Shown: positions 951-36,822, counted from the stretch's first letter. The stretch is DNA of 49,710 bases from Actinomycetota bacterium (GCA_009886115.1 VFJJ01000130.1:1-49710), one strand, 5' to 3'. Made by a program: numbers and translations. Notes: generated by a model not told the origin, from the sequence alone.

Positions 951-957
951 AGAAGGT

Positions 958-985
958 GCATCGGACCCAAACGGGGCTTTCTTGA
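958..985 (-). promoter_or_regulatory. Sigma28-like promoter of GNAT gene (probably leaderless)
   Basis: TCAAG-N15-TCCGATGC, 7 nt upstream of GTG at 950. Confidence 0.5.
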
Positions 986-1549: not shown

Positions 1550-1578
1550 CTCAACCACCACCACTGATCGTCCGATGA
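1550..1578 (+). promoter_or_regulatory. Sigma28-like promoter in fliS-flgB intergenic region
   Basis: CTCA-N17-TCCGATGA. Confidence 0.55.
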
Positions 1579-1584
1579 GACGTC

Positions 1585-1710
1585 CACGGAGCTCACCCCG
1601 CCGGCGTTGGCCGACCGGGGGAGCGCCACACAACGAGAAAACAGCTCCGGTCATGGATCGACCGGTTCGGGCATCCAGGGAAGAACGCCTCGGCGTTCTT
1701 CCCTTGTTTG
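1585..1710 (+). ncRNA. Candidate structured sRNA or attenuator with GGA motifs
   Basis: Lies between a sigma28-like promoter and an intrinsic terminator; hairpin CCGGTC-ATGGATC-GACCGG; ACGGA, GGGGA and AGGGA motifs; no plausible ORF. Confidence 0.45.
1677..1710 (+). terminator. Rho-independent terminator
   Basis: AGGGAAGAACGCC-TC-GGCGTTCTTCCCT perfect inverted repeat followed by TGTTTG. Confidence 0.75.
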
Positions 1711-1712
1711 CG

Positions 1713-1739
1713 TTCACCCCTGAAAGCGAGCACCGATGA
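1713..1739 (+). promoter_or_regulatory. Possible sigma28-like promoter of flgB operon
   Basis: TTCA-N15-ACCGATGA directly after the terminator. Confidence 0.4.
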
Positions 1740-2107
1740 TCGAGCGGTCCAGCAGCATCGCCGACACGACGATGAAGGCGATCGAGTACGCCATGGGCGG
1801 GCTCTCGCGCCGGGCCGACGTGCGAGCCAACAACATCGCCAACGGCGAGACCCCCGGGTTCAAGGCCAAGAGCCTGAGCTTCGAGCGGCAGCTCGGTCAC
1901 GCGCTGCGCAACGGCGAGATCGACAACGTGGCCGGGTTCTCGCAGGGCCTGCGCGACACCACCCCCGACGCCTTCGACAACACCGTCGAGCTCGAGGAGG
2001 AGGTGGCCGAGATGACCAAGGACAACCTCATGGTCACGGCCATGGTCAACGCCTACAACTACAAGGTCGGTCTCCTGCGTTCGGCCATCTCGGGCGGCGG
2101 TCGCTGA
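1736..2107 (+). CDS. flgB: Basal-body rod protein FlgB
   Basis: RADVRANNIANGETPGFKAK, NTVELEEE; start may be ATG 1772. Confidence 0.93.
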   Translation: MIERSSSIADTTMKAIEYAMGGLSRRADVRANNIANGETPGFKAKSLSFERQLGHALRNGEIDNVAGFSQGLRDTTPDAFDNTVELEEEVAEMTKDNLMVTAMVNAYNYKVGLLRSAISGGGR

Positions 2108-2109
2108 TC

Positions 2110-2526
2110 ATGGGCATGGGACCGTTCAGCACGATCGACGTCAGCACGACCGGGATCACGTTCTCGCGTTTCTGGCTCGACACGCTCGCTCACAACATGG
2201 CCAACGTCAACACCGTGCGCTCCTTCGACGAGGAGCCGTTCCGGGCCAAGTTCCTGCGCGCCGAGGAGACCGCCTCCGCCGACCGCGGCGGTCCCGGGCG
2301 AGGCGTGCACCTCGAGGAGATCGTTGCTACGCAAGGAGATCCGACTGTCGTGTTCGACCCCGACCACCCCCTGGCCAACGCACAGGGCCTCGTGAAGCGG
2401 GCGATGGTCGACATGGCCGGACAGATGTCGGACCTCATCGTGGCCCAGCGGTCGTACCAGATGAACATCCGCGTGGTGCAGGCCGCCAAAGAGGCCTACG
2501 AAGCAGCGCTCCGGGTCGGCCGGTAG
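2110..2526 (+). CDS. flgC: Basal-body rod protein FlgC
   Basis: AHNMANVNT, FDPDHPLANAQGLV, MSDLIVAQRSYQMN; ATG 2110 just after the flgB stop. Confidence 0.95.
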   Translation: MGMGPFSTIDVSTTGITFSRFWLDTLAHNMANVNTVRSFDEEPFRAKFLRAEETASADRGGPGRGVHLEEIVATQGDPTVVFDPDHPLANAQGLVKRAMVDMAGQMSDLIVAQRSYQMNIRVVQAAKEAYEAALRVGR

Positions 2527-2576
2527 GGCCGGGACCAGGACCAGAACCAGATGATCCAGAGGACGGGACACCAATC

Positions 2577-2891
2577 ATGAGCATCGGTGGCATTGCCAGC
2601 ATCGGCGGCGGGATCTCCCCGATCTCGCGCCCCATCCCGGGCATCGGCGCCGCCGAGATCGGGCCGGGGGGCGACAGCTTCAAGGACGCGGTCGCACGGG
2701 GGCTGCAGTCGGTGTCGAACCAGGAGAATCAGGCCGACGGCCTCAGCCAGGCCCTGGCCGCGGGCGAGCAGGTGCAGATCCACGACGTGATGGCCGCCAC
2801 CACCAAGGCCCAGCTGTCGGTCGATCTGCTCGTGCAGGTGCGCAACAAGGCCGTCGACGCGTACCGCGAGATCATGAACATGCAGGTCTGA
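2577..2891 (+). CDS. fliE: Hook-basal body protein FliE
   Basis: IHDVMAATTKAQLSVDLLVQVRNKAVDAYREIMNMQV. Confidence 0.96.
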   Translation: MSIGGIASIGGGISPISRPIPGIGAAEIGPGGDSFKDAVARGLQSVSNQENQADGLSQALAAGEQVQIHDVMAATTKAQLSVDLLVQVRNKAVDAYREIMNMQV

Positions 2892-2893
2892 CG

Positions 2894-4219
2894 ATGTCGA
2901 ACCCGACCGCGCTCGCCGTCGACGAGCTGTCCCAGCGCCTGCGCCGCACGGAGGTCTTCCGTGTCGGGGGCAGCGTCGCGGGCGTCATGGGCCACGAGGT
3001 GGAGGTGCGCGGGCTGCGTCTGCGGCTCGGCGACGTCCTCGGCGTCCACACCGAGGCCGGTGATCGCCTCGCTGAAGTCGTCGCTGTCGGCCCGGACTCG
3101 GCGAGCGCGCTCGTCTACGGCGAGACCGGCGGTATCGGCCGAGGTGATCGGGTCAGCCTGCGCCGCGAGGGCTTCGGCGCCGAGGTCGGAGCCGGACTGG
3201 TCGGACGGGTGATCGACGCATTCGGCCAGCCGATGGACGGAGGACCGCCCGTGCGGGGCGAACCCGTCCAGGTGCACATGGACGTTCCCGATCCGATGGA
3301 GCGCCAACGGATCTCGCAGCCCCTCCCCGTCGGGGTACGGGTCATCGACTCCCTGTGCACGATCGGACGAGGTCAGCGCCTCGGGATCTTCGGCGGCTCG
3401 GGTGTCGGCAAGTCGACGCTCCTCGGGATGATGGCCCGGGGCACCACGGCCGAGATCTCGGTCCTGGCGCTCATCGGTGAGCGCGGCCGTGAGGTGCGGG
3501 AGTTCATCGAGGACGACCTCGGCCCCGAAGGGATGCGCCGGTCGATCGTGGTGGTCGCCACCTCGGATCAGCCGCCGCTCGTCCGCCTGCGGGCCGGCTT
3601 CCTCGCCACGCGCATCGCCGAGTGGTTCGCCGATCGCGAGGCCGACGTGCTGTTGATGTTCGACTCACTCACCCGCATGGCCATGGCCCAGCGCGATGTG
3701 GGTCTCGCAGCGGGCGAGCCTCCCACGGCTCGCGGCTACACACCCTCGGTCTTCTCCCTGATGCCCAAGCTGCTCGAACGGGCGGGCCCCCGAGCCCGCG
3801 GCACGGTCACCGGCCTGTACACCGTGCTCGTCGACGGCGACGACATGAACGACCCGATCGCTGACGCCGCTCGCTCGATCCTCGACGGTCACATCGTGCT
3901 CGACCGTCGCATGGGCACCCTGGGGCGCTATCCGGCGATCGACCCGCTGGCCTCGTTGAGCCGGCTGGCGTCGAAGGTCACGACGCCCGAGCAGAGGGGC
4001 CAGGCCCAGGCCATCCGGGCTGCGCTCTCCGCAGCCGAGGAAGTGCGCGATCTGGTCGAGGTCGGCGCCTACGTGCCGGGCACGAATCCCTTGGCCGACA
4101 AGGGCTTGGCGGCGAGTCCCGACATCGTGCACGGCTTCTTGAAGCAGGACGCGCTCGAGGTGACGAGCTTCACCGACACGTGGGCCCGAGCTGCCGAGCT
4201 CGCCCGGAGGGTCGCATGA
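2894..4219 (+). CDS. fliI: Flagellar export ATPase FliI
   Basis: Walker A GGSGVGKST, ALIGERGREVREF, DSLTR, GEPPTARGYTPS, DPIADAARSILDGH. Confidence 0.97.
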   Translation: MSNPTALAVDELSQRLRRTEVFRVGGSVAGVMGHEVEVRGLRLRLGDVLGVHTEAGDRLAEVVAVGPDSASALVYGETGGIGRGDRVSLRREGFGAEVGAGLVGRVIDAFGQPMDGGPPVRGEPVQVHMDVPDPMERQRISQPLPVGVRVIDSLCTIGRGQRLGIFGGSGVGKSTLLGMMARGTTAEISVLALIGERGREVREFIEDDLGPEGMRRSIVVVATSDQPPLVRLRAGFLATRIAEWFADREADVLLMFDSLTRMAMAQRDVGLAAGEPPTARGYTPSVFSLMPKLLERAGPRARGTVTGLYTVLVDGDDMNDPIADAARSILDGHIVLDRRMGTLGRYPAIDPLASLSRLASKVTTPEQRGQAQAIRAALSAAEEVRDLVEVGAYVPGTNPLADKGLAASPDIVHGFLKQDALEVTSFTDTWARAAELARRVA

Positions 4220-4265
4220 GCGGGCCGAGCTCGAGCGAGCAGACGTCGAGCGAGCAGGGGGCACC

Positions 4266-4703
4266 GTGAAGAAGCGTGACCCCATCAAGACGCTGCTGCG
4301 GATCCGCGACATCCGCGAGCGTCAAGCCCGCGGGCGCCTGGCCGTGCAGCACCAGGAGCAGGCCAAGGCCGAGACCGCGCTCGAACGGCGTCAACGGGCC
4401 TACATGGAGCGCGACGTCCCGGCGCGCGAGCTCTCGCCCGCCCAACTCCGGGTGCTGAGCCTGCAGGGGATCCGTTCGCTCGAGCTCCTCAACGACGCCG
4501 CCCGGGCGCTCGACGAGGAACGGCTCCGCACCGAGCGCGTCCGCGACGCCTGGTCGCGAACCGCCAACGCGCTCCGGAGCGCCCAGCGTCTCGACGAGCG
4601 ACGCGAGATCGACGCAGCCGTTTCGGCCCGGAAGGCGTCCGACAAGGCGCTCGACGAGCTGGTGCTCACGCTGCGCGAACCCAAGCGGGGGAAGCGATCA
4701 TGA
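4266..4703 (+). CDS. fliJ: Flagellar export protein FliJ
   Basis: 145-aa coiled coil directly after fliI; TLLRIRDIRERQA, C-terminal KALDEL. Confidence 0.75.
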   Translation: MKKRDPIKTLLRIRDIRERQARGRLAVQHQEQAKAETALERRQRAYMERDVPARELSPAQLRVLSLQGIRSLELLNDAARALDEERLRTERVRDAWSRTANALRSAQRLDERREIDAAVSARKASDKALDELVLTLREPKRGKRS

Positions 4704-5431
4704 CGACGGACCTGCGCCCTGCCGGCCTCGACCGGGTACTGGCCCGCATGGCCGAGCTGCGCTCGAGCATGGGCGCGGGCAGATCGTCGGGCCCCACGTT
4801 CGACGACATGATGCTTGCTGCGGAGCGCCGCCCGACCGGCCCGGTCTATGCCGTCGCCGAGAGCCTCCCCGAGACATCGACCACCGCTGCAGCCGACGCG
4901 CTGCTCTCGACGGCCTCGGCCTATCCCCGCGTGGGCTCGACCACCGGGCTCGCCGGGACCGCATCGACGATCCCGGCCGTGGCCGACCTGTTCGACCCCA
5001 GCGCTCCGATCGATCCTTCGTGGGCGGCGGCACTGCCCGAGGCGGGGATGCCCTGGAGCGGAGCCATCGGGGATGCGGCTGCCCGCAACGGCGTCGACCC
5101 TCGACTGCTCAGCGCGCTGGTCTGGACCGAGTCGGGCTTCCGGCCTGAGGCCGTCTCCGAAGCCGGGGCCCGGGGTCTCGCTCAGCTCATGCCAGCCACC
5201 GCGGCCGGGCTCGGAGTCGATCCCGACGATCCGCTGCAGAACCTCGACGGCGGCGCCCGCTACCTCCGATCCGCCCTCGACCGCTTCGGTCGCCTCGACC
5301 TGGCCCTGGCCGCGTACAACGCCGGTCCTCGCCGGGTCGACGAGGCCGGCGGTGTTCCCGACATCCCCCAGACCCGCGCCTACGTGAGCAGGGTTCTCGA
5401 TCGCTACCGCCTCCTGGGAGGCCCGACATGA
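4700..5431 (+). CDS. Lytic transglycosylase (SLT domain)
   Basis: TESGF, GARGLAQLMP, ALAAYNAG. Confidence 0.93.
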   Translation: MTTDLRPAGLDRVLARMAELRSSMGAGRSSGPTFDDMMLAAERRPTGPVYAVAESLPETSTTAAADALLSTASAYPRVGSTTGLAGTASTIPAVADLFDPSAPIDPSWAAALPEAGMPWSGAIGDAAARNGVDPRLLSALVWTESGFRPEAVSEAGARGLAQLMPATAAGLGVDPDDPLQNLDGGARYLRSALDRFGRLDLALAAYNAGPRRVDEAGGVPDIPQTRAYVSRVLDRYRLLGGPT

Positions 5432-7254
5432 ACATCGCGTCCACCATCGTCGCTAGCGGAAGGGCCGAGCTCACCGGCATCCGAGCCGTCGACGCTCTCG
5501 GAGCCCCACGGATCCGCGGGGCGGGCACGTCGTCCGCCTTCAGCACGGTCCTGCAGAGCGAGCTCGACACCCCGACGACTGAAGCACGGCCCCGCACCGA
5601 CCGCCGGCCTGCCGGCGACCGCGCGCTGCGCGACCGTGATCACGACCATCGGCTTCCCGCAGCGCGCGCGGTTCGACCGAGCGCGCCGGCAAGCAACGAG
5701 CCCGCCATGGTCGACCGCACCGACGACCTCGAGGCCACCGAGGAGACAGGGGCCACCGACGAGACAGGGGCCACCGAGGAGACCGAGGCCACCGAGGAGA
5801 CCGAGGCCACCGAGGAGACCGAGGAGACCGAGGAGACAGGGGCCTCGCGCTCCGGACGGCTCGAGCACGATCCGCACCCGAGCGCGTCGGTGAGCCCGAC
5901 CGCCGTGGCGGCGCCGACGACGGCCGCTCCCCAACTTGCGGCACCGCCGACGACCGAGAGACCTGGTGACGTCGTCGTCGCAGCGATCGGTGCGCCCGCG
6001 TCCAGCGCAGTCGACGCCGTCGACGCGAGCCGGACCGCACCGGCCGTCGCCGCCCTGGCCGACACCCCGAACGGGCACACGAGCCCAGCCAACGCGGCGG
6101 CGACGGTGGCGTCGGGAGCGACGGCCGATGCGAGCACCGCGGCGACTGCCCTCGCACCGGCGACGACCGAGCTCAACGTGGCGCCGGGCTCGCCCGCACC
6201 GGTCTCGGCCACACCCGTCCCGAGCCCGACCGCGACAGCGCCTGCCGCGGTGACGCCAGGAGCCGAACCGTCGATAGCGACGCCGATCGCCGTCGATCCG
6301 GTCCCCGTGACGGCGGCCACTGTCCTCGCCGGAGTCGTCGCCAGCCCGGTCTCGAAGGCAACGTCGGGTGCCCGTGCCGCCGAAGACGAGCTGGCGCCGA
6401 CCGACGCTGCCGCTGCGACGACCCCGAGCGCGAGCACGGCGGCCGTTGCGACCACGGACACGGCCGCCAGCGCTGCTCTCGGCGGCGAAACAGCGGACGA
6501 CACCAGCGAAGCCGACGACGATCAGGTCGCCACCTCCGACGTCGCCGCACCGACCGAGCGCCCACAGACCACCGATGCGACGCCGATGGCGATCGCGACG
6601 GCCGACCCGGGTGCCGCGGCCCAGCTCGCCGCGGCCGCGGCCGCGGGGGCGCCCATCTCGACCGAGCTCACGGAGAGTGCACCGGCGACCACGAGCGGGC
6701 CCCGACCGGTAGGTGAGACCCCGATCGTGGGCGCCACCGCGACGACAGGACCAGCGGCTCCGGCAGGCTCGCTCACCGGTCCGAACAGCCTGGTCGAGCC
6801 GAAGATCGTTCCTTCGGAGACCCCGGCACCGACGAGCACCGCAGCCCAGCGGCTGATGGACATCGTCGAGCGTCTCGAGCACGCTCCCCCGCCTCGGCGG
6901 ATGTTCGTCGAGCTCCCCGAGCTCGCCGGCGCCCGGGTGGAAGTGGCGCTGCGCGGAACCGAGGTCCACGTTCGCATCGTCGGGGGATCGGCGATGTCGG
7001 CCGGCGACGGCTCGGACCGTGAGGCCTTCGGCTCCTTGGCCCGCGACCTCGATCGGGCACTCGCAGATCGGGGCTTCAGCCTCGGGGACAGCTCGGCCCG
7101 ACGTCAGGGCCACTCCCGCTCCGGCACCGACGACGAGCGTCCACCGCCCAACGGCGACCGCGCTCGGCCGATGACCGACGACGGATCACCGCGGCGATCT
7201 CGCCGCAGCGCGGGCGACGGGCCCGGAGCGGTACCGAGCGGATTGAGGATCTGA
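5428..7254 (+). CDS. fliK: Hook-length control protein FliK (putative)
   Basis: Long A/T/P-rich low-complexity region, FliK_C-like end (VELPELAGARVEVALRGTEVHVRI, LDRALADRGFSL), directly upstream of flgD. Confidence 0.75.
   Translation: MNIASTIVASGRAELTGIRAVDALGAPRIRGAGTSSAFSTVLQSELDTPTTEARPRTDRRPAGDRALRDRDHDHRLPAARAVRPSAPASNEPAMVDRTDDLEATEETGATDETGATEETEATEETEATEETEETEETGASRSGRLEHDPHPSASVSPTAVAAPTTAAPQLAAPPTTERPGDVVVAAIGAPASSAVDAVDASRTAPAVAALADTPNGHTSPANAAATVASGATADASTAATALAPATTELNVAPGSPAPVSATPVPSPTATAPAAVTPGAEPSIATPIAVDPVPVTAATVLAGVVASPVSKATSGARAAEDELAPTDAAAATTPSASTAAVATTDTAASAALGGETADDTSEADDDQVATSDVAAPTERPQTTDATPMAIATADPGAAAQLAAAAAAGAPISTELTESAPATTSGPRPVGETPIVGATATTGPAAPAGSLTGPNSLVEPKIVPSETPAPTSTAAQRLMDIVERLEHAPPPRRMFVELPELAGARVEVALRGTEVHVRIVGGSAMSAGDGSDREAFGSLARDLDRALADRGFSLGDSSARRQGHSRSGTDDERPPPNGDRARPMTDDGSPRRSRRSAGDGPGAVPSGLRI
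5731..5844 (+). repeat. In-frame 18/9-bp tandem repeat (ATEETE/G) in fliK
   Basis: Repeated GCCACCGAGGAGACC/AG and GAGGAGACC units. Confidence 0.9.
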
Positions 7255-7255
7255 G

Positions 7256-7789
7256 ATGCCCGAAGTCACGTACCAGCCGATCACGACGGTGCCCCGAGGA
7301 CCCGCCGTCGCTGCGCCCCGACAGGTGGTGGGAGGGAGCTCCATCCTCGGGGGCCTGGGCTCGGACGCCTTCTTGAAGCTGTTCATCGCGCAGCTCAAGT
7401 ACCAGAACCCCATGGAGCCCATGGACGGCACGCAGATGATGGCGCAGACCAGCCAGTTCACCATGGTCGAGACGCTGCAGGCCCTGTCGGAAGCCCAGAA
7501 GACGACCATGGGCTACACCCAGATGTCGACCGCCACCGGCCTCATCGGTCGCAGCGTGACCGCGCTCGACAACGGTGAGACGGTCACCGGGGTGATCGAC
7601 CGGGTCCAGGTCAGCACCGACGGGCCCGTCCTCGTGATGGGCGCCCGCAAGGTGCCGATCACTGCGGTCATCAGCGTCGGCGTCCCGCCGGCCTCGACGG
7701 GTGCCACCCCGGGCCCGGCCACCAGCACCACCCCGACCACGGGTGCCACCCCGGGCCCGGCCACCAGCACCACCCCGACCACCCCCTGA
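7256..7789 (+). CDS. flgD: Hook capping protein FlgD
   Basis: FLKLFIAQLKYQNPMEPMD, AQTSQFT, LIGRSV. Confidence 0.95.
   Translation: MPEVTYQPITTVPRGPAVAAPRQVVGGSSILGGLGSDAFLKLFIAQLKYQNPMEPMDGTQMMAQTSQFTMVETLQALSEAQKTTMGYTQMSTATGLIGRSVTALDNGETVTGVIDRVQVSTDGPVLVMGARKVPITAVISVGVPPASTGATPGPATSTTPTTGATPGPATSTTPTTP
7697..7780 (+). repeat. Perfect 42-bp tandem duplication in flgD 3' end
   Basis: ACGGGTGCCACCCCGGGCCCGGCCACCAGCACCACCCCGACC twice. Confidence 0.95.
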
Positions 7790-7851
7790 GCTACCGCTCA
7801 GCCCGCCCGAGCACCACGCGTTCCCCACGGAGCAAGGAGCCCCAACCCACC

Positions 7852-9102
7852 ATGATGCGATCGATGTTCTCCGGTGTTTCCGGTCTGCGAGCCCACCAGA
7901 CGATGATGGACGTCGTCGGCAACAACATCGCCAACGTCAACACCGCCGGATTCAAGGCATCCCAGGTCACCTTTCAAGAGGCGCTGTCCCAGACCGTTCG
8001 TGGAGCCTCCGGCAGCAGCGCGGCGGGGCGAGGTGGCACGAACCCCATCCAGCTCGGCCTCGGTGTGATCGTGGCCTCTGTCGACGGTGTCTTCACCCAG
8101 GGTGCCACCCAGGTGACGGGCCGCTCGACCGACCTCGCCGTGCAGGGTGACGGCTTTTTCATCGTCACGCAGAATCCCGCCGACCAGACCTACACCCGGG
8201 CCGGGGCGTTCAACTTCGACGAGGATGGCTACCTCGTCAACCCCGATGGCCTCAAGGTCCAGGGGTGGGTCCCGAACGCGGTGGGCGTGATCGACACCAA
8301 CACGACCGTCGCCGACATCACCCTGCCGATCGGCCAGGTGATCGACCCCACCCCCACGACGACGGCCTCGATCGGCGGGAACCTCTCGGCCGACGCCCCG
8401 GTCGCCACGCAGTCGGTCACCACCATCGGGGTGTACGACTCCGAAGGGCGAGCCCACCAGCTCCAGGTCACCTTCACCAAGACCGCGACGAACGCGTGGG
8501 ACGCCGCCGGACTCCTCGACGGTGTGACAACGATCGACATGAACGGGGCGGGTGCCGGCACGGTCGCCGCGGTCACGTTCAGCCCGACGGGCCAGCTCAC
8601 GTCGGGCAACATCACGCCTACCGCGATCGCGATCGCCGGCGCGAACACCATGACCGTCGTGCTCGACCTCACCGGCAGCAGCCCGCTGGTGCAGTTCGGT
8701 GGTGCATCGACGGCCGCGGCGTTCACGCAGAACGGCGAGGCCATCGGGTCCCTGCGGAACTTCGCCATCGGAGGCGACGGCTCGGTCACCGGCCAGTTCT
8801 CCAACGGCGCCACCAAGGTGCTGGCTCGCGTCGCCATCGCGACGTTCAACAACCCCACGGGTCTCACCCGGCAGGGGAACTCGAACTTCAGCCAGACGGT
8901 CAACTCCGGTCAGCCGATCATCGGGACGGCCGGCACGGGGAACCGCGGCACGCTCATCGCCGGCGCGGTCGAGATGTCGAACGTCGATCTGGCCCGGGAG
9001 TTCACCTCGATGATCATCGCCCAGCGTGGATTCCAGGCCAACTCCCGCATCATCACGACCTCGGACGAGATGCTGAACGAGCTCGTGAACCTCAAGCGCT
9101 GA
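7852..9102 (+). CDS. flgE: Hook protein FlgE
   Basis: GNNIANVNTAGFK, DLAVQGDGFF, YTRAGAF, EMSNVDLAREF, AQRGFQANSR. Confidence 0.97.
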   Translation: MMRSMFSGVSGLRAHQTMMDVVGNNIANVNTAGFKASQVTFQEALSQTVRGASGSSAAGRGGTNPIQLGLGVIVASVDGVFTQGATQVTGRSTDLAVQGDGFFIVTQNPADQTYTRAGAFNFDEDGYLVNPDGLKVQGWVPNAVGVIDTNTTVADITLPIGQVIDPTPTTTASIGGNLSADAPVATQSVTTIGVYDSEGRAHQLQVTFTKTATNAWDAAGLLDGVTTIDMNGAGAGTVAAVTFSPTGQLTSGNITPTAIAIAGANTMTVVLDLTGSSPLVQFGGASTAAAFTQNGEAIGSLRNFAIGGDGSVTGQFSNGATKVLARVAIATFNNPTGLTRQGNSNFSQTVNSGQPIIGTAGTGNRGTLIAGAVEMSNVDLAREFTSMIIAQRGFQANSRIITTSDEMLNELVNLKR

Positions 9103-9135
9103 TCCCGGGGCCGCGCCTGTCGCACGCACCGGTCG

Positions 9136-9162
9136 TTAACTCCTCGGCACTTCGTCCGACGA
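9136..9162 (+). promoter_or_regulatory. Sigma28-like promoter of flbD-fliL
   Basis: TTAA-N15-TCCGACGA. Confidence 0.5.
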
Positions 9163-9195
9163 GTGGGTCACAGGGGAACAACCCGGAGGTACCAC

Positions 9196-9462
9196 GTGAT
9201 CCTCGTTCATCGCCTGAAGGGCGAGCCGCTCTTCCTCAACGCCGACCTCATCGAGTGCATCGAGTCGACCCCCGACACGATGGTCACGCTCGCCGACGGC
9301 CGGAAGTACGCCGTGGCCGAGCGACCCGAGCAGGTCGTCGAGGCAGCGCGGACGTTCCGGGCATCGGTGCTCGTGGCGGCTCAGGACATGCGGTCGGGTC
9401 CTCCTGCTCCTGTGCTCCAACTGGCGCCGGTTCGTCTCACCGGTGAGGACGACGACGACTGA
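9196..9462 (+). CDS. flbD: Flagellar protein FlbD (SwrD family)
   Basis: MILVHRLKGEPLFLNADLIECIESTPDTMVTL; GGAGG then GTG 9196. Confidence 0.92.
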   Translation: MILVHRLKGEPLFLNADLIECIESTPDTMVTLADGRKYAVAERPEQVVEAARTFRASVLVAAQDMRSGPPAPVLQLAPVRLTGEDDDD

Positions 9463-9509
9463 TTCATCGCTGACCGGAGACGGCCTGCGATGCGACGGAG
9501 GAACCGAAG

Positions 9510-10154
9510 ATGGCCAAGAAGGCCAAGGGCAAGCCCCTCGCTGAAGGCGAGGAGCCCCCGAAGAAGGACAACAAGAAGAAGATCATCATCGTGGTCGCGC
9601 TGGCCGCGGCCTGGAAGATGGGCTTCCTGCCCATCGGGGGGTCGAAGGACGCCTCGGCGGTGACGACCACGACCGCCATGTGGCCGGGCGATGCCGTCGA
9701 CGTCGGCGAGCCCCTGGTCGTGAACCTGGCCGACGAGACCACGACGGCCTATGCCCGTGTAGGGATCGCCCTGGTGCTCCCCGGGCACGGCGTGCAACCG
9801 GGAACCGAGGACGAGGCTCACGCGCTCCCCGGCGCATCGCAGACGGTCCTCGCCGACGGCCTCCCGGTCGTCCCCGGCGGCTTCGGTGGTGGACGCGTCG
9901 GCGCCCCGCAGGTCGTGACCCCGGCTCCAGATCAGGGAGCGGGCGCGGTCGACCCGGTCGTGGCCCTGGAGAAGAAGTTCCCCCGGATGCGAGCTGCCGC
10001 CACCGACATCGTCCGAGCCCACACGTCCGAGGAGCTCGAGTCGGAGGACGGGACCGTGATGCTCGAAGACGAGCTCACCGAAGCGGCGTTCGAGATCTTC
10101 GGTGACCGCGACATCTACGGGGTCATCGTCACCGAGCTCGTCATCCAGAAGTAG
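9510..10154 (+). CDS. fliL: Basal body-associated protein FliL
   Basis: Lys-rich N-terminus then TM, VVNLAD, C-terminal TELVIQ; upstream of fliM. Confidence 0.85.
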   Translation: MAKKAKGKPLAEGEEPPKKDNKKKIIIVVALAAAWKMGFLPIGGSKDASAVTTTTAMWPGDAVDVGEPLVVNLADETTTAYARVGIALVLPGHGVQPGTEDEAHALPGASQTVLADGLPVVPGGFGGGRVGAPQVVTPAPDQGAGAVDPVVALEKKFPRMRAAATDIVRAHTSEELESEDGTVMLEDELTEAAFEIFGDRDIYGVIVTELVIQK

Positions 10155-10198
10155 GCCACGGCGGCCCGGCTCGGAGTCGGAGTCGGACGAGGTCTTCC

Positions 10199-10225
10199 TA
10201 CAGACGGCGGATCGGTGGCCGATAG
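10199..10225 (+). promoter_or_regulatory. Sigma28-like promoter of fliM
   Basis: TACA-N15-GCCGATAG. Confidence 0.65.
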
Positions 10226-10261
10226 ATGACGAACGGTACATAGCGGAACGAGACGGACGAG

Positions 10262-11239
10262 ATGGCGGACGGCAAACTCAGCCAGACGGAGATCGATGCG
10301 CTGCTCGCCGCCATGCGCCCGCAGTCGGTCGCGTCCACGCCGACGAAGAACTACGTCGAATTCGACTTCCGCCGCCCGAGCAAGTTCACCCGTGAGCTCA
10401 TCCGCTCGGTCGAGGCGTCACACGAGCTCTTCTCCCGGCGCTTCGCCGGGCTCGTGACCCAGCAGCTCCGGGCGGTCGTGCACGTCGAACCGCTGGCGAC
10501 CGACCAGATCACCTATCAGGACTACATCCGGTCGATGGCCAACCCGACCGTGCTCACGATTCTGAACCTCGCTCCATGGCCCGGCCAGGCCGTGATCGAG
10601 CTTTCGACCCAGATGGCGTTGACCCTGGTCGACCGCATGCTCGGCGGGCCCGGGCGGCCCATCCCCCTGCGGCGTCCCACCGATCTCGAGATCACCCTCA
10701 TACGCGTCCTGATGGACGCCGCCTGCTCGGCATTGAAGGAGACCTTCGCCGACGTGCTCGAGGTGACGCCCACGGTCAGCTCGGTGGAGCTCAACCCGAA
10801 CTTCGTCCAGGCCGTGGCTCCGTCGGAGATGGCGCTGCTGTTGTCGTATCAAATGTCGGTCACGTCGACCCGCCGCACCGACGGTCTCTTGACGCTCTGC
10901 TATCCGTTCTCGACCCTGCAGCCGGCGATGGAACGGCTCGAGCGTCAGGTGTGGACCGAAGACCGTCCCAGCCTGATGAGCGCCAACTCGAGCGGGATTC
11001 CACCGCTCAACGCACATCTCCGCGAGGTGGACGTCCCGATCACGGTCCGTCTGCGGGTCAGCAAGATCCCGGCGATCGACGTGGCGACGCTGCGACCAGG
11101 CGACGTGCTGCGACTCGATCATCGGGTGGGAGAGCCAGTGATCGGCACGGTCGAGGGCCGCGAGGTCCTCGAAGGCAACGTCGGACGCGTGGGGCGGAGA
11201 TTGGCCCTCCAGCTGACCGACTGGTTGGTCGACCAATGA
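10262..11239 (+). CDS. fliM: Motor switch protein FliM
   Basis: LSQTEIDALL CheY-binding peptide, FDFRRPSKF, MLGGPG, SpoA-like end. Confidence 0.96.
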   Translation: MADGKLSQTEIDALLAAMRPQSVASTPTKNYVEFDFRRPSKFTRELIRSVEASHELFSRRFAGLVTQQLRAVVHVEPLATDQITYQDYIRSMANPTVLTILNLAPWPGQAVIELSTQMALTLVDRMLGGPGRPIPLRRPTDLEITLIRVLMDAACSALKETFADVLEVTPTVSSVELNPNFVQAVAPSEMALLLSYQMSVTSTRRTDGLLTLCYPFSTLQPAMERLERQVWTEDRPSLMSANSSGIPPLNAHLREVDVPITVRLRVSKIPAIDVATLRPGDVLRLDHRVGEPVIGTVEGREVLEGNVGRVGRRLALQLTDWLVDQ

Positions 11240-11306
11240 CACAGGACCACTCGACCCGTCTCCACCGAGACGGCGCGCGCCCGAGCGGACACATCCGGGG
11301 ACGACG

Positions 11307-12368
11307 ATGAGCACCACCTCCACTTCCACCGAGTTCTTCAACGACGCGGTGGGTGAGATCGGCAACATGATGATGGGCGCCGGGGCCACCAACCTGGCCG
11401 GCCTCCTGGGGGTACCCGTCAGCATCACGACGCCACAGGTCGACGAGGGTGTCCCCGACGATGCCTATCCCGAAGGTCGTTCGGTGGTCGTGCGGGTCGA
11501 GCTCACCGGCGCGGTCTCCGGGCACTCGGTCTTCCTCTTGCCGACCGAGCAGACCATCGAGATCGTCAAGCTCATGACCGAGGGCATGGACCTCCCGGAG
11601 GAGGAGATCCTCGGCGAGTTCGGCATGTCTGCCATCGGCGAGGCGATGAACCAGCTCATCGCCGGCGCGGCCCGGGCGCTCGGCGAGATCGTCGGCGGGC
11701 TCGTCGACATCACGCCCCCGTTCATCGAGATCCTCGAGCGCGAAGACATCGACATCGGCTTCGACACCACGCGCACCTGCACGATCAGCTTCAACGTGCA
11801 GATCGGCGCCAACATGACGGGCCGGTTGTCGTGGCTCATGGACCGGGAGCTCGCCGCCGGGCTCATCCAGCGCGTCGAAGCCCACATGGCGGGCGGCTCG
11901 ACCCCGTCGCCGTCCGAACCTGTCGCTGCGTCGCCGCCACCGCCGGTTGCGGCCGCGCCCGCAGCTGCTCCCCCCCCTGTCTACGCCCCGGCGTCCGAGC
12001 CGTCGTATGCGGCCGCGGCCGCGCCCCCGCCTGGATACGCAGCGGCGCCGGCGCCTCAAGTTCAGCCGGCGTCCTTCCCCGAGCTCCGGGCTCCGGTGGG
12101 CCCACCGGCATCACAGGCCGACATCGCCAAGTTGTCGGACGTGACCCTCAACGTGACCGTCGAGCTCGGACGGACCACCTTGAAGGTCAAGGAACTGCTG
12201 GGCCTCGGGCCCGGCAGCGTCGTTGAGCTCGACCGGATCGCGGGTGCTCCCGTCGACATCCTGGTCAACGGAACGCTCGTCGCCCGAGGTGATGTCGTGG
12301 TGGTCGACGACGAGCTCGGCGTCCGAGTCAGTGAAGTCATCGATCCATCGGACAGGAAGGCCAACTGA
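11307..12368 (+). CDS. fliY: FliY (CheC-like phosphatase domain fused to FliN)
   Basis: GEIGN and GEAMN ExxN motifs, Pro/Ala linker, FliN domain VTVELGRT...GSVVELD...VDILVNG. Confidence 0.88.
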   Translation: MSTTSTSTEFFNDAVGEIGNMMMGAGATNLAGLLGVPVSITTPQVDEGVPDDAYPEGRSVVVRVELTGAVSGHSVFLLPTEQTIEIVKLMTEGMDLPEEEILGEFGMSAIGEAMNQLIAGAARALGEIVGGLVDITPPFIEILEREDIDIGFDTTRTCTISFNVQIGANMTGRLSWLMDRELAAGLIQRVEAHMAGGSTPSPSEPVAASPPPPVAAAPAAAPPPVYAPASEPSYAAAAAPPPGYAAAPAPQVQPASFPELRAPVGPPASQADIAKLSDVTLNVTVELGRTTLKVKELLGLGPGSVVELDRIAGAPVDILVNGTLVARGDVVVVDDELGVRVSEVIDPSDRKAN

Positions 12369-12369
12369 A

Positions 12370-12729
12370 ATGGCACGAATCATGGTTGTCGACGATGCAG
12401 CGTTCATGCGGACGGTGCTCAAGAAGATCCTCAGCGAGGCGGGACACGAGGTCGTCGGTGAGGCGACCGACGGCGTCGACGCCTGCGCGAAGTACGCCGA
12501 GCTCAAGCCCGATCTCGTGACGATGGACATCACCATGCCCAACATGGATGGGGTCCAGGCGCTCAAGCAGATCCGATCGATCGACGGCAACGCCCGGATC
12601 ATCATGTGCTCGGCCATGGGCCAGGAGTCACTTGTCGTCGAGGCGATCAGCAGTGGCGCCCGCGACTTCGTGGCCAAGCCCTTCGAGGCCGGCCGCGTCG
12701 TCGGTGCCATCGCCAAGGCCCTGCTCTGA
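12370..12729 (+). CDS. cheY: Chemotaxis response regulator CheY
   Basis: MARIMVVDDAAFMR, PDLVTMDITMP, MCSAMGQ, FVAKPF. Confidence 0.93.
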   Translation: MARIMVVDDAAFMRTVLKKILSEAGHEVVGEATDGVDACAKYAELKPDLVTMDITMPNMDGVQALKQIRSIDGNARIIMCSAMGQESLVVEAISSGARDFVAKPFEAGRVVGAIAKALL

Positions 12730-12805
12730 CGCTCATCGCACCTGCGATCGCGAATCCGATGCGCTCTCACACCTTCCTTCGTTCGACCAGCCGCGAGGCG
12801 AGTCG

Positions 12806-13303
12806 ATGACGACGGCCGACATCGTTCGGCTCGTGGTCTCGCTCGTCCTCGTGGTGGGCGGGCTCTTCGTGCTGCGCTGGTGGACCCAGCGCGGCCGCGG
12901 CCGCAGCCTCCGTCGGCAGGCGATGGTGGGGCGCGTCCCGATTCGCGTGATCGGCCGAGCCGGTCTGGCGCGAGGCGCGAGCGTCGCCGTCATCGAGGTG
13001 GGAACCCAGCGGTTCCTCGTCGGTGCCAGCGAGCACTCGGTGTCGCTCCTCTCGGAGCTCCCGGTCACCGGGCACGTCGAGAGCCGCTTGGAAGCGAGCG
13101 CCCCCGGATCGCAGGCGACCGGTGGCGCCGATGCTGGCGCGGCACCCGTCGCCGATGAAGTCCCCGAGCAGTTCGACTCCTCGGTCAGCACCCTTGATTC
13201 CTCCACGGATGCACATACTGGGCCACGGATGGGCCTCGTTGCGCGCTTGCAGCTGATGACGCTGCGAGCGCCCGACCGACGGCCATCCCGTGCAGTCTCG
13301 TAA
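12806..13303 (+). CDS. fliO: FliO/FliZ flagellar biosynthesis protein
   Basis: N-terminal TM, IRVIGRAGL...VAVIEVGTQRFLVGASEHSVSLL; precedes fliP. Confidence 0.85.
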   Translation: MTTADIVRLVVSLVLVVGGLFVLRWWTQRGRGRSLRRQAMVGRVPIRVIGRAGLARGASVAVIEVGTQRFLVGASEHSVSLLSELPVTGHVESRLEASAPGSQATGGADAGAAPVADEVPEQFDSSVSTLDSSTDAHTGPRMGLVARLQLMTLRAPDRRPSRAVS

Positions 13304-14255
13304 CGTCAGCGTCCGTCGCAGTCTCTCCAACCATCGTCAGGCTCTTCCCCCCGAGGTTCTTGCGCGGCGGGCCGCGATCCTGGCCAAGGTGCGCTCGTGG
13401 TCGTGGCTGTGCGCCGGCGCGATGTTCATCGTCTTGTCGTTCGGTGTCGCCAACGCGCCCGACGTGCGCGCCCAGGAAGCTCCCAGCGTGCCGCCCGACC
13501 CCGTGTTGACCGTCGACCCGCCCGTGATCGGTGAGCCCGATCCCCTGGTCGAGGTGCAATCGCCCGACGCCCCCAACGACCCCAACGACATCAACATCAA
13601 GGTCGACTCGGGCGAAGGCACGCTCTCGCGCACGGTGGTCATCATCCTCCTGATGACGGTGGCCTCGATCGCCCCTTCGGTCTTGTTGCTCACGACCTGC
13701 TTCACGCGCTTCATCATCACGTTGTCGTTGACCCGCAACGCCCTCGGCGCCCAGACCCTGCCACCGACGCAGGTCCTGGTCGGGTTGGCTCTGTTCCTCA
13801 CGGTCTTCGTGATGCGCCCGATCTTCGTGCAGATCAACGACGACGCCGTCCAGCCCATGCTGAACAACGAGATCGAGGCGGGCGAGGCGTTCGAGAAGGG
13901 CTTCGACCCGTTGCGCAAGTTCATGCTCCGCCAGGTCGACGACAAGGACCTGGCCCTGTTCGTGAACCTGGCCGATCAGCCCAAGCCCGAGAGCAACGAG
14001 GACATCTCGCCGACGACACTCATCCCGGCCTACGTGATCTCCGAGCTGCGCCACGCCTTCGTGATCGGCTTCGTGATCTTCGTGCCGTTCCTCATCATCG
14101 ACCTGGTGGCGTCGTCGGTGCTGATGTCGATGGGCATGGTCATGCTCCCGCCGGTGTTCATCTCCCTGCCGCTCAAGCTCCTCCTGTTCGTGCTGGTCGA
14201 CGGGTGGAACCTCATCATCGGCTCGGTGGTCCGATCCGTCCAAGGAGTCACGTAG
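13290..14255 (+). CDS. fliP: Export gate protein FliP
   Basis: TCFTRFII, PPTQVLVGLALFLT, LIPAYVISEL, MGMVMLPP, KLLLFVLVDGW; start uncertain. Confidence 0.96.
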   Translation: MQSRNVSVRRSLSNHRQALPPEVLARRAAILAKVRSWSWLCAGAMFIVLSFGVANAPDVRAQEAPSVPPDPVLTVDPPVIGEPDPLVEVQSPDAPNDPNDINIKVDSGEGTLSRTVVIILLMTVASIAPSVLLLTTCFTRFIITLSLTRNALGAQTLPPTQVLVGLALFLTVFVMRPIFVQINDDAVQPMLNNEIEAGEAFEKGFDPLRKFMLRQVDDKDLALFVNLADQPKPESNEDISPTTLIPAYVISELRHAFVIGFVIFVPFLIIDLVASSVLMSMGMVMLPPVFISLPLKLLLFVLVDGWNLIIGSVVRSVQGVT

Positions 14256-14259
14256 CGCC

Positions 14260-14529
14260 ATGACCGACGCGCAAGTTCTCGATCTCGTTCGCAGCGGCCT
14301 GGTGCTCGGCGCCAAGGTGTCGGCGCCGCTGTTGATCGCCAGCCTCGTCGTGGGCGTGGCGATCTCGCTGCTGCAGACGGTCACGCAGATTCAGGAGATG
14401 ACGCTCACCTTCGTGCCCAAGCTCGTCGTCTCGGCGGTGATCATCCTCCTCGCCGGGAACTGGATGATGCACGAGATGGTCACCTGGGTCACCAACCTCT
14501 GGGGTGGGATCCCCGAGATGGTGAGCTGA
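14260..14529 (+). CDS. fliQ: Export gate protein FliQ
   Basis: QTVTQIQEMTLTFVPK. Confidence 0.97.
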   Translation: MTDAQVLDLVRSGLVLGAKVSAPLLIASLVVGVAISLLQTVTQIQEMTLTFVPKLVVSAVIILLAGNWMMHEMVTWVTNLWGGIPEMVS

Positions 14530-15293
14530 TGGACATCACGATCAACGCCCACTGGGTTGCGGGCTTCTTGTTCTCGGTCACGAGGATGGGAGCGTTCGTC
14601 GCGGCGTCGCCGGCATTCAACCGATCCCTCCCCCGGCTGGGTCGCCTGGCACTGGTGATGTCGGTGGGGCTGTTCCTCGCCGACCCGGTGTCCACCGAGC
14701 TCACCGTGGTGCGCATCGTGTACGGCGCGGCGATCAACCTCACCGTGGGCCTGATGATCGGGCTCTTGACGGGGTTCTTGTTCCATCTCTTCGCCATCGC
14801 CGGCGATCTCATCGACGTGCAGTCGGGGCTCGCCAACTCGGCCCTGTTCGATCCGGTCTCGGGCCACAACTCGGCGCTGTTCACCCGCATGTTCTCGATG
14901 ACCTCGCTCACCGTGTTCTTCCTGATCGGGGGCGATCGCCTGATGATCGCCGGGATGGCAACCAGCGTCGACGCCATCCCGCTCGACGGCACGATCTCCG
15001 TGAGCGACGGACTGGGCAACCTGATCCTGCCCCTGATCTCGCGCATCTTCGTCGCCGGCATCGAGTTGGCTGCGCCGGTGATGGCGGCGCTGTTCGTCAC
15101 CGATGCCGTCCTCGGCATCGCCAACCGGTTCGCGCCGCAGATGAACGTGTTCATGCTGGGCATGCCGATCAAGCTGCTGCTGACGCTCTCGACCGTGGGG
15201 ATCGTGCTGATGCTGTTCTCCCCCTTCGAGCAGGGGCTCCTCAACGACATCCCCCGCATCACCACCGACGTGCTCCGCGGCCTGCGGCCATAA
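14529..15293 (+). CDS. fliR: Export gate protein FliR
   Basis: AGDLIDVQSG, LAAPV, RFAPQMNVF. Confidence 0.96.
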   Translation: MDITINAHWVAGFLFSVTRMGAFVAASPAFNRSLPRLGRLALVMSVGLFLADPVSTELTVVRIVYGAAINLTVGLMIGLLTGFLFHLFAIAGDLIDVQSGLANSALFDPVSGHNSALFTRMFSMTSLTVFFLIGGDRLMIAGMATSVDAIPLDGTISVSDGLGNLILPLISRIFVAGIELAAPVMAALFVTDAVLGIANRFAPQMNVFMLGMPIKLLLTLSTVGIVLMLFSPFEQGLLNDIPRITTDVLRGLRP

Positions 15294-15324
15294 GGGCATT
15301 CGTCCGCTTCGCCCCGATCCGTCG

Positions 15325-15353
15325 TTCAAGGGGCGCCACCGACGTGCCGATAG
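15325..15353 (+). promoter_or_regulatory. Sigma28-like promoter of flhB-flhA
   Basis: TCAAG-N15-GCCGATAG. Confidence 0.7.
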
Positions 15354-15361
15354 CTGCTCCT

Positions 15362-15433
15362 GACCCAGGATGGGTCGCGACCCGTCGGGTCGGCATCACC
15401 CGGAGCCACGGATCGGCGCTCCCCGCGAAAGCG
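15362..15433 (+). promoter_or_regulatory. Structured flhB leader with two GGA-loop hairpins (putative CsrA sites)
   Basis: GACCC-AGGAT-GGGTC (15362-15376), GCC-ACGGATC-GGC (15405-15417), CGC-GAAA-GCG tetraloop. Confidence 0.55.
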
Positions 15434-15440
15434 CGAGGCT

Positions 15441-16484
15441 GTGGCCCAGGCCGAAGGACGTACCGAGAAAGCGACACCCAAACGCAAGCGCGACGCGCGC
15501 CGTGAGGGCCAGGTCGTGAAGTCGGTCGAGGTCTCCACTGCCCTGTCGCTCCTGGCCGGCCTCATCGCGATCAAGGCCTTCGTGCCCCTCGTGACCGGCA
15601 GCATCGTGGATGGCGCCCGTGGGATCTGGGCCAACGCCGGCGCTGGGATCTCCCGCGATGCCCTGGCCGGGGATGCATCGAGGATGTTCCTGGTCGGCGC
15701 GGCGCCGTTTCTCGGTACCGCGCTCGTGCTCGGGGTGGTCGGAGGCTTCGCCCAGACCGGCTTCGCCTTCGCCATAGCAGCCGCCAAGCCCAAGCTCTCG
15801 AACCTGAGCCTGAAGCGGGGGCTCGGACAGCTCAAGCCCGGTCGGGCCGGCTGGACCCTCCTGAAGGAGTCCCTCAAGGTCGGGATCTTCTTCCTCGCCG
15901 TCAAGGGCCCGATCACCAACTGGATGGCGGGCTTCTCGACGGCCAAGTCGCTGTCGGCCTGGGTGACGAGCACCAGCACGATGGTGTGGTTGGCCCTCGT
16001 GCGGGGTGTCGTGCTCGGTTTCGTGATCGGGGCGGCCGACTACCTCGTGGCCAAGCGGCGCATCAACAAGCAGATCCGGATGTCGAAGCAGGAGGTGAAG
16101 GAAGAGCACAAGAGCAACGAAGGCGACCCGAGAATCAAGGGCCAGCGGCGCCGTCGAGCCCAGGAGCTCTCCCGGAACCGGATGATGAGCGAGGTGGGCA
16201 ACGCCGACGTCGTGATCACGAACCCGACGCACTACGCCGTGGCGCTCAAGTACGTCGACGGTGAGCCCGCGCCGCGAGTCGTGGCCATGGGCGCCGACCA
16301 CCTGGCGCTCAAGATCCGGAAGCTGGCTTACCGCCACGGCGTGCTCGTCCAACAAGACCCCCCGCTCGCTCGAGCCATCTACCGCCGCTGCAAGGTGGGT
16401 CAGTACATCCCGTCGATGCTCTACGAGGCCGTTGCCGTCGTGATCGCCACGGCGTACCGCCGTCGACTCAGAGGGATCGCATGA
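15441..16484 (+). CDS. flhB: Substrate-specificity switch FlhB
   Basis: TEKATPKR, EGDPRIK, NPTH autocleavage motif. Confidence 0.97.
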   Translation: MAQAEGRTEKATPKRKRDARREGQVVKSVEVSTALSLLAGLIAIKAFVPLVTGSIVDGARGIWANAGAGISRDALAGDASRMFLVGAAPFLGTALVLGVVGGFAQTGFAFAIAAAKPKLSNLSLKRGLGQLKPGRAGWTLLKESLKVGIFFLAVKGPITNWMAGFSTAKSLSAWVTSTSTMVWLALVRGVVLGFVIGAADYLVAKRRINKQIRMSKQEVKEEHKSNEGDPRIKGQRRRRAQELSRNRMMSEVGNADVVITNPTHYAVALKYVDGEPAPRVVAMGADHLALKIRKLAYRHGVLVQQDPPLARAIYRRCKVGQYIPSMLYEAVAVVIATAYRRRLRGIA

Positions 16485-36407: not shown

Positions 36408-36716
36408 TCAGAGATCGGGCGAGGGTGGACGAACGGGCGGCGCCGGACGCTCCGCCACGGGTGTCCCGGCCGAGCCCGGGGCACCACCAGCCGGCTTCTT
36501 GCGCCGCAGGAGGTCCTGAGCGGCCGTGGCCGTGGAAGCCACCGCGGCGACGTTCTCGCTCATCACCTGGCGATAGATCTCTTCGCGGTGCACCGTGACC
36601 GAGCGGGGGGCGTCGATCCCCAAGCGGATCTGCTCGCCCCGAACCTCGAGCACCGTGACGACGATGTTGTTACCGATCACGACGGACTCACCGGGTCGGC
36701 GGGTCAACACGAGCAT
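36408..36716 (-). CDS. csrA: Translational regulator CsrA (with C-terminal extension)
   Basis: [30 protein letters not shown]; strong RBS. Confidence 0.97.
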
Positions 36717-36822
36717 GCGTCGGCCCTCCTCCTCGATTCCCACGTGGTGGGCTTCCGTCCCTGGATGTTCCCGTCCACGACAGCCTCCCAGCCCGTCGGT
36801 CCGAATCTGTCGCGAACGACGG

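Follow-up and report, generated by a model that had tools for sequence, protein, structure and literature searches.

The pairing of CsrA with FliW, its protein antagonist, is considered the ancestral version of the Csr system, and it has mostly been studied on flagellin mRNA. In Bacillus subtilis, CsrA binds the hag leader at BS1, in a hairpin loop, and at BS2, over the Shine-Dalgarno sequence, and a FliW-CsrA-Hag partner switch operates in which FliW and unexported flagellin are modelled to set the free CsrA pool; to our knowledge, hag is the main or only direct CsrA target in this organism. In Escherichia coli, CsrA protects the 5' end of the leader of flhDC, a flagellar early operon, and promotes Rho-dependent termination in pgaA by unfolding the RNA. 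A protein site overlaps the 5' arm of the terminator in the HutP and LicT/SacY RAT systems and leads to antitermination, and the flgB leader of Clostridioides difficile carries a c-di-GMP riboswitch attenuator. Campylobacter jejuni has FliW and CsrA, with no Csr small RNA (sRNA) known as far as the relevant sections of PMC4894983 go, and CsrA there binds the leaders of many flagellar mRNAs and can be titrated by one of them, that of flaA. Both CsrA-type sites in leaders of flagellar genes and leader terminators before flgB are already known kinds of element. Here we analyzed 49,710 nt of DNA from an Actinomycetota bacterium (GCA_009886115.1, VFJJ01000130.1:1-49710; the window) and, with a probability of roughly 0.55, we read positions 1551-1735, between fliS and flgB, as a sigma-28-type promoter and the ~150-nt 5' leader of the flgB operon, with a conserved CsrA-type element and a terminator whose stop CsrA would oppose. 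The finding as a whole is a prediction from sequence.

Contig C142 of an assembly of 5.4 Mb in 224 contigs (G000; 68.5% G+C, completeness 95.6%) makes up the window, and all organisms compared were uncultured metagenome-assembled genomes (MAGs). Pfam confirmed the genes that an initial annotation of this DNA had assumed on either side of the 251-nt spacer, namely fliS (1101-1484, +; Pfam FliS, E 4.9e-34) and flgB (1736-2107, +; the frame opens at 1724 and the ATG stands at 1736), and the csrA and fliW genes that it had also assumed are both encoded in the window (Pfam). The promoter-like element, the four GGA motifs, the hairpin with GGA in its loop and the stem with a U-rich tail that it had listed were all located as described, except that the stem, given as 13 bp, was found as 12 bp. 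The RNA from 1580 to 1712 was predicted to fold into three hairpins at -66.5 kcal/mol (shuffled sequences had a mean of -49.3, z -4.78, with 0 of 200 as stable), each helix having a pair probability above 0.97 (0.97 for the second hairpin). The leader opens with H1 (1588-1627, +), a GC-rich 40-nt hairpin of -26.7 kcal/mol. H2, CCGGUC-AUGGAUC-GACCGG (1647-1665, +), holds a GGA in its loop AUGGAUC. The third hairpin belongs to an intrinsic terminator (1677-1715, +) with the 12-bp stem AGGGAAGAACGC/GCGUUCUUCCCU (1677-1704; -22.4 kcal/mol), the loop CUCG and the tail UGUUUGCGUU, and ends 31 nt before the flgB ATG. GGA occurs at 1588, 1619, 1655 and 1678; the first two are buried in H1, and H2 is the only leader hairpin with GGA in its loop. 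The last GGA lies in a second site, CAUCCAGGGA (1672-1681, +), 23 nt downstream of the GGA of H2 (1655 vs 1678), and the 5' arm of the terminator, AGGGAAGAACGC, starts inside this second site as read from the sequence. H2 and the second site together make up a dual-GGA element at 1643-1686 (+), a candidate site for a CsrA dimer.

This arrangement resembles that of hag in having a sigma-28-type promoter (sigma-D/sigma-28 in B. subtilis), a loop GGA with a further GGA downstream, and FliW as the protein antagonist; unlike in hag, the second site of the flgB leader lies off the ribosome binding site, and it is the fliC leader of the window that has the hag-like layout. With C. jejuni, the window shares FliW and CsrA as well as GGA motifs in several flagellar operon leaders rather than in that of flagellin alone, and in both a leader may titrate CsrA (PMC4894983 for C. 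jejuni). In contrast to C. jejuni, the window comes from another phylum, the target would be the flgB basal-body/export operon with a sigma-28-type promoter, and the leader has a fixed hairpin with a second site ~23 nt on, an overlap with a terminator and no GGA at the flgB Shine-Dalgarno sequence, CsrA binding being predicted only. As in flhDC and in the E. coli pgaA leader, where CsrA affects Rho-dependent termination (PMC4052769), CsrA in the 5' leader is proposed to alter elongation or stability and not only ribosome access. Unlike in pgaA, the stop in the window is an intrinsic terminator and the effect would be antitermination; in neither pgaA nor flhDC does a terminator arm overlap a GGA site. 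The order of promoter, site overlapping the 5' arm, terminator and first gene is that of HutP and LicT/SacY RAT, although protein and sequence differ and no homology is claimed, and the C. difficile riboswitch, which differs in ligand and sequence, likewise gates a flgB operon through a leader terminator. The CsrB/RsmZ sponge sRNAs also have a promoter, a terminator, no reading frame and loop GGA motifs, but they carry many repeated GGA hairpins where the window has one loop GGA, and the window's element lies ahead of an operon with which it is probably co-transcribed.

The consensus of sigma-28 promoters is TAAA at -35 and GCCGATAA at -10, ~15-16 nt apart. The element that we assign to the flgB operon as a promoter of the sigma-28 (FliA/WhiG) type (1551-1579, +) has a -35-like TCAA at 1551-1554 and a -10-like TCCGATGA at 1571-1578. 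TCAA-N16-TCCGATGA agrees with the consensus at 2/4 positions of the -35 and 6/8 of the -10, and the alternative parse CTCA (1550-1553)-N17-TCCGATGA fits as well. Transcription would be predicted to start near 1585-1587. In the sole close relative in the collections (G001, a MAG of the same genus labelled 'Actinomycetes bacterium'), the 1551-1579 element was invariant save for 2 changes in the spacer. In 19 of 27 related loci of the order, the 330 nt ahead of flgB contained the pattern T[CA]A[AG]-N15-17-CCGAT. The fetched DNA as a whole gave a background of 0.055 per 330 nt, and most of its 29 matches are themselves the pre-flgB sites. In these relatives, CTCAA(G/C)T..-N-..(G)CCGAT stands roughly 70-250 nt before flgB. 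A FliA/WhiG sigma factor is encoded in the genome (TIGR02479, 280 bits, above the family cut-off; G000:C39). The sigma-28-type promoter of the initial annotation is supported by this gene and by the recurrence of the element before flgB. The second promoter-like element that it had placed before flgB (CACCGATGA, 1731-1739) was rejected, since it runs over the flgB start codon (1736) and lacks a fitting -35; no other was seen between 1705 and 1736, and the window showed no other flgB promoter. We read 1551-1735 as promoter and leader of flgB because the promoter and the GGA element of the relatives stand directly before flgB and because 1705-1736 holds no other promoter.

G001 is 94% identical to the window in FlgB and 88% in the spacer, and H2 and the terminator are invariant in it. 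FlgB scans of metagenome and genome collections returned nothing closer. The covariation analysis of fliS-flgB spacers that had been proposed for this locus had only two sequences to draw on, the window and G001, which are too few for a test of the whole spacer. Of 264 genomes in the order, 48 had a FlgB match, and the comparison was made on the DNA upstream of flgB in those loci that were fetched. About 20-25 nt past the -10, these relatives have a 6-8-bp hairpin with a CA(N)GGA loop, followed, after a linker of ~10 nt ending in UCC, by a second A(N)GGA and often by further GGA down to the Shine-Dalgarno sequence. The two GGA were 23-26 nt apart in 11 of the 14 motif rows listed (G001 and relatives). 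One CsrA dimer bridges sites ~10-63 nt apart, and the 23-nt spacing of the window falls inside this range; the geometry is that expected for one CsrA dimer. A strict motif was defined after the data were seen: a hairpin with 6 or more stem pairs and a loop of 5-9 nt containing GGA, with another GGA 20-29 nt further downstream. In 9 of the 28 loci from relatives it occurred in the last 110 nt before flgB, while 200 dinucleotide shuffles gave a mean of 0.63 and a maximum of 4.

Since the motif had been defined post hoc, an independent test was made with R1, a covariance model built from five relatives only (L042, L049, L035, L046 and L048), whose FlgB is ~32-40% identical to that of the window (tblastn). 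Run over the whole window with all filters off, R1 gave its best match, among the 63 listed, at 1643-1686 (+) with 25.9 bits (E 7.2e-5, a rough value), and the next reached 15.2 bits. On the relatives' loci (E below 0.1), 16 of the 19 matches outside the training set were on the sense strand and at most 250 nt ahead of flgB, and these 16 span seven families (f1, f3, f7, f9, f14, f19 and f22). The three exceptions were L036:302-340, L034:2241-2288 and L052:1444-1483, the last of them upstream of fliS. All six pairs of the H2-type stem changed on both sides in the model-made alignment, which leans towards the model, and 95.5% of the stem cells paired as compared to 74% after shuffling and 39-49% after sliding of the partner column. 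R1 found nothing below E 0.2 at the flagellin and fliF loci. The CsrA-type hairpin of the initial annotation belongs to a dual-GGA element kept across families of the order, and its words recur in the fliC, fliF and csrA leaders.

Two features have been added around this element in the genus, H1 at its 5' end and a strong terminator with its 5' arm in the second GGA site. H1 has 8 substitutions in 40 nt in G001 and still forms a hairpin there; no counterpart was found in the order-level relatives, whose GGA hairpin starts ~20-25 nt past the -10. It is genus-specific and possibly a 5' stabilizer. The word CCACGGAG at the predicted 5' end of the leader (1584-1591, +), partly within the 5' arm of H1, is identical to the second site of the relatives' element. 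The terminator is identical in G001 and absent from the order-level relatives. In one of these (L052), a different terminator-like hairpin, AAGGAGGAGGC-GUUU-GCCUCCUCCUU, stands just before flgB. The spacer of L052 also contains three copies of GCUGACGGAGGGCC, and in L026 a hairpin sequesters the Shine-Dalgarno sequence.

The overlap of the terminator with the second GGA site suggests attenuation modulated by CsrA, though we put the regulated-attenuator step itself at only about one chance in three. In the mechanism that we propose, transcription from the promoter, together with read-in from fliS, would stop at 1705-1715 as long as the terminator can close at its base. A CsrA dimer sitting on CCAGGGAAG and on the loop of H2 would occupy the first 5-6 nt of the terminator stem; the lower 5-6 bp beside the U-tract would then stay unformed, the hairpin would be uncoupled from the U-tract, and the polymerase would run on into flgB. 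The RNA of ~125 nt would be the terminated leader, with about one CsrA dimer per molecule. Expression of the basal body would in this way be tied to the free CsrA pool, set by FliW and unexported flagellin. Both CsrA binding and the direction of its effect on termination are inferred; CsrA could also favour termination, or leave the terminator unaffected.

Several observations weigh against this reading. No antiterminator helix was found, and the terminator stayed intact when the alternative pairing in the leader was forced; therefore, any control would have to come from a factor bound on the 5' arm. Only two genomes, both from one genus, have the terminator. It could therefore have been inserted recently and be unregulated, and attenuation cannot be what the element did ancestrally. 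A 12-bp stem that has lost 5-6 bp might also still terminate. There is no GGA in 1705-1738, and thus none over the Shine-Dalgarno sequence of flgB, where several relatives, L042, L049 and L035 among them, have one; the flgB start is preceded by the weak Shine-Dalgarno-like GAAAGCGAG (1722-1738 with the ATG, +), likewise without GGA. Compared by eye with those of f9 relatives, the spacer of the 1551-1579 promoter is longer by 1 nt. R1 scored only 16.5 bits on G001, and over the whole genome its best other match had 23.4 bits (150 of 5670 candidates scored), which puts the window's match little above noise at that scale; the four best listed matches that we inspected lay inside likely coding regions, and the window's own element was not among the whole-genome matches listed. 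The related genomes are, in addition, non-independent samples. One metatranscriptome run contained 25% of the sampled words, and its contigs cover 1040-1358, 1427-1577, 1611-2070 and the gene for a GNAT acetyltransferase; they stand at low, even depth, the GNAT gene included, show no ends and may reflect DNA carry-over. Neither the strand nor the level of transcription, nor where it starts, can be read from such contigs, and their gap at 1578-1610 is no evidence in either direction.

It is possible, though rather unlikely in our judgment, that the CsrA-type element is real while the terminator is constitutive, leaky and outside CsrA control, CsrA acting on translation or on the stability of the leader, presumably its mode of action in relatives without the terminator too. 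The element without a terminator in order-level relatives and the lack of an antiterminator fold would both fit such a stop. So would the fliS gene, which has its own promoter and, as no terminator was found between fliS and 1677, should have transcripts that end at or pass the same stop; on this reading the stop would be common to fliS transcripts and the flgB promoter. Against a constitutive stop, the terminator begins exactly within the second GGA site. Such terminators are also rare, a hairpin and T-tract of this strength occurring 77 times in the genome (both strands) and once in the window, and a strong unregulated stop ~30 nt before a 17-kb operon with no other visible promoter would be costly.

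The initial annotation had offered a sponge RNA or an attenuator, and these two fared differently. As a sponge, the spacer would encode a stand-alone sigma-28-driven sRNA of ~125 nt that sequesters CsrA beside FliW, flgB being transcribed separately. A promoter-like element and a strong terminator do flank ~125 nt with no conserved frame (indels of 3 and 1 nt in G001), the two CsrA-like sites are 23 nt apart, and a leader with two sites, that of flaA in Campylobacter, titrates CsrA (PMC4894983). Against this stand the single loop GGA, with two of the four GGA buried in H1 and the number itself close to the ~2.3 per ~125 nt that we estimated by hand from composition, and the lack of any match in Rfam or any other copy of the spacer in its own genome. 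The homologous elements of the relatives are flgB leaders without terminators, no separate flgB promoter was seen, and the metatranscriptome contig 1611-2070 runs across the terminator into flgB, weak evidence given possible carry-over. We consider the sponge improbable; the attenuator/leader part of the claim was retained, being preferred because of the relatives' element before flgB without a terminator, the absence of another flgB promoter, the one loop GGA and, weakly, the bridging contig. The locus is most likely a flgB-operon leader and not a free-standing sRNA. Still less credible to us is an ordinary spacer in which the hairpins are the fliS 3' untranslated region and terminator and the GGA words and promoter match arose by chance. 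The counts of GGA and of CCGATGA at chance level (the latter 19 in the window vs 15.9 expected) and the single close relative available for direct alignment would suit it, but the promoter type and the dual-GGA element recur before flgB in distant relatives, and rare words are common to the fliC, fliF and csrA leaders. The two-fold switch of the initial annotation, in which 1587-1593 pairs with 1643-1649 to exclude H2, was not supported as a switch acting on the terminator: the pairing exists, but at -61.0 kcal/mol it is 5.5 worse than the main fold, has a pair probability of 0.00025 and leaves the terminator unaffected.

Two further possibilities for the spacer were discarded. A small protein was considered for a 54-aa frame at 1575-1739 and for a shorter frame from the AUG inside CAUGGAU; neither had a Pfam match, and we take the spacer as non-coding because its frames lack a Pfam family and are broken by the 3-nt and 1-nt indels in G001. 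The spacer might also have been the remnant of a lost ORF, as an extra ORF of ~100 aa lies between the two genes in relatives that likewise have fliS ahead of flgB (L052:2300-2535, L026:1180-1512 and L028, minus strand), but this ORF is absent in the window and no sign of a remnant was found. Infernal against Rfam, a check suggested with the initial annotation, matched no family at the gathering score over the whole window, and at a relaxed E-value 1400-1800 gave two chance-level matches only (an archaeal snoRNA and HIV SD).

The likely reader of the element is the FliW/CsrA pair of the same window, although the case for CsrA at the flgB leader is circumstantial. fliW (36823-37416, -) and csrA (probable start 36716, to 36408, -) are positioned after flgK and flgL on the minus strand. 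CsrA was found in 137 of the 264 genomes of the order, a tally that includes one genome flagged unpublished (G243), and among the 48 with FlgB it was missing from only two, both incomplete. Whole families have CsrA without a FlgB match (f11 34/34, f20 11/11 and f10 7/7), and 12 CsrA matches were counted in the single genome G059. It looks as though CsrA is present there in the absence of flagella, or as though the flagellar proteins have diverged beyond the reach of the query.

Short words link the flgB leader to other leaders of the genome. The fliC promoter and leader (106-221, -) contain the hairpin CGAGCA-GCAUGGA-UGCUCG (185-167), CACGGAGG over the Shine-Dalgarno sequence (119-112) and a second hairpin, AACCCC-CUA-GGGGUU, and are conserved in G001; the flagellin leaders of two relatives have CAUGGAUC in a loop and CACGGAGGAG at the Shine-Dalgarno sequence. 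CAUGGAU is common to the fliC loop, H2 and the fliF leader of the same genome, while CATGGAT occurs 267 times in 10.9 Mb of strand, or 0.0037 expected per 150 nt. The fliF leader lies on another contig (L076, G000:C15, ~1164-1240), where CTCAAG-N-GTCGATGC is followed ~15 nt on by CAUGGAU, within CCAUGGAUGGA, and then by the CGGA-loop hairpin GCCACGA-CGGA-UCGUGGC. The early fliF operon, as read here, also has a sigma-28-type promoter and a GGA leader; the predicted fliC and fliF leaders have words in common with the flgB leader but not its arrangement. CATCCAGGGA, within the second site, occurs 11 times in the genome, the flgB and csrA leaders being among these, and the whole of CAUCCAGGGA is found in the csrA leader (36767-36758, -). 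Hairpins with ATGGA in the loop and a stem of 6 bp or longer number 226 in 10.9 Mb of strand, and this feature, like the terminator, was judged to exceed chance. A genome-wide scan for such hairpins with a crude coding filter gave no discrimination.

The fliW-csrA spacer (36717-36800, -) is itself GGA-rich, with GGACGGGAACAUCCAGGGACGGAAG ... GGGAAUCGAGGAGGAGGG just before the csrA start at 36716, which looks like CsrA autoregulation; R1 matched there weakly (10.4 bits). CCACGGA is a commoner word (675 in the genome) and is found elsewhere in the window before flgE (7825), fliP (13203, 13223), flhB (15406) and the flgN/flgK operon (40316, -). Before fliP, at 13203-13231 (+), CCACGGAUG is exactly repeated 20 nt apart, ~60 nt upstream of the gene (R1 14.3 bits, E 0.065), and may be an internal CsrA site.

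The sigma-28-type pattern had seven matches in the window, before fliS, flgB, flhB, a sigma gene and the GNAT gene and at two places taken as chance. The fliS promoter is TAAA-N15-GCCGATGG (1000-1027, +; pattern match) and the fliC promoter CTTA-N17-GTCGATAG (221-193, -; read from sequence). In both, the -35 and -10 blocks are kept in G001 and the spacers have diverged, a pattern as in real promoters. Upstream of flhB, TCAAGG-N-GCCGATAGC at 15326-15354 (+) is followed by CCACGGA at 15406, ~35 nt before the gene, and 15326-15412 (+) may form an internal promoter with a GGA leader. A second, weaker TIGR02479 match in the window (22262-22918, -; 168 bits, below the cut-off) corresponds to a FliA/WhiG-like sigma gene preceded by TCAAGA-N-GCCGATGAG (23018-23046, -), and this may be auto-activation of a flagellar sigma. 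FlgM (PF04316) was not found in the whole genome (95.6% complete) despite the sigma-28-type promoters. Between fliC and fliS lies the gene for the GNAT acetyltransferase (309-950, -; Pfam), whose GTG follows the end of the match at 957-985 (-) by 7 nt; the gene may be leaderless and linked to the flagellum. The fliC gene itself is present as its 5' end (1-105, -; Pfam).

The operon that the leader would control runs from flgB to 18526 (1736-18526, +; Pfam) in the order flgB, flgC, fliE, fliI, a fliJ-like gene, an SLT lytic transglycosylase gene, a fliK-like gene, flgD, flgE, flbD, fliL, fliM, fliN/Y, cheY, fliP, fliQ, fliR, flhB and flhA. A wider reading of these data, which we hold only tentatively and regard as doubtful, would make CsrA an antiterminator at an intrinsic terminator that opens this 17-kb operon. 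Free CsrA would then signal flagellin not yet exported, and capture of CsrA by FliW would lead to termination and to a CsrA-binding RNA of ~125 nt. With sigma-28-type promoters and CsrA-type leaders heading the early flgB and fliF operons and the flagellin gene throughout this actinobacterial order, the sequence of assembly would be set post-transcriptionally by FliW-CsrA and not by a sigma cascade.

Among open-access papers and bioRxiv preprints, we found no paper on CsrA targets in Actinobacteria, no conserved CsrA-type element on an actinobacterial flgB operon, no sigma-28-type promoters heading early flagellar operons in Actinobacteria and no CsrA-type site that overlaps an intrinsic terminator, the termination case found being the Rho-dependent one of pgaA. 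PMC10746217 treats actinobacterial flagella, and in the sections of it that touch on CsrA and FliW these serve only as BLAST queries. If the reading proposed here is true, the FliW-CsrA circuit would reach early flagellar genes in a phylum whose flagellar regulation is almost unstudied, and the stretch shared by the CsrA-type site and the intrinsic terminator would be a simple, testable candidate for a further mode of CsrA action.

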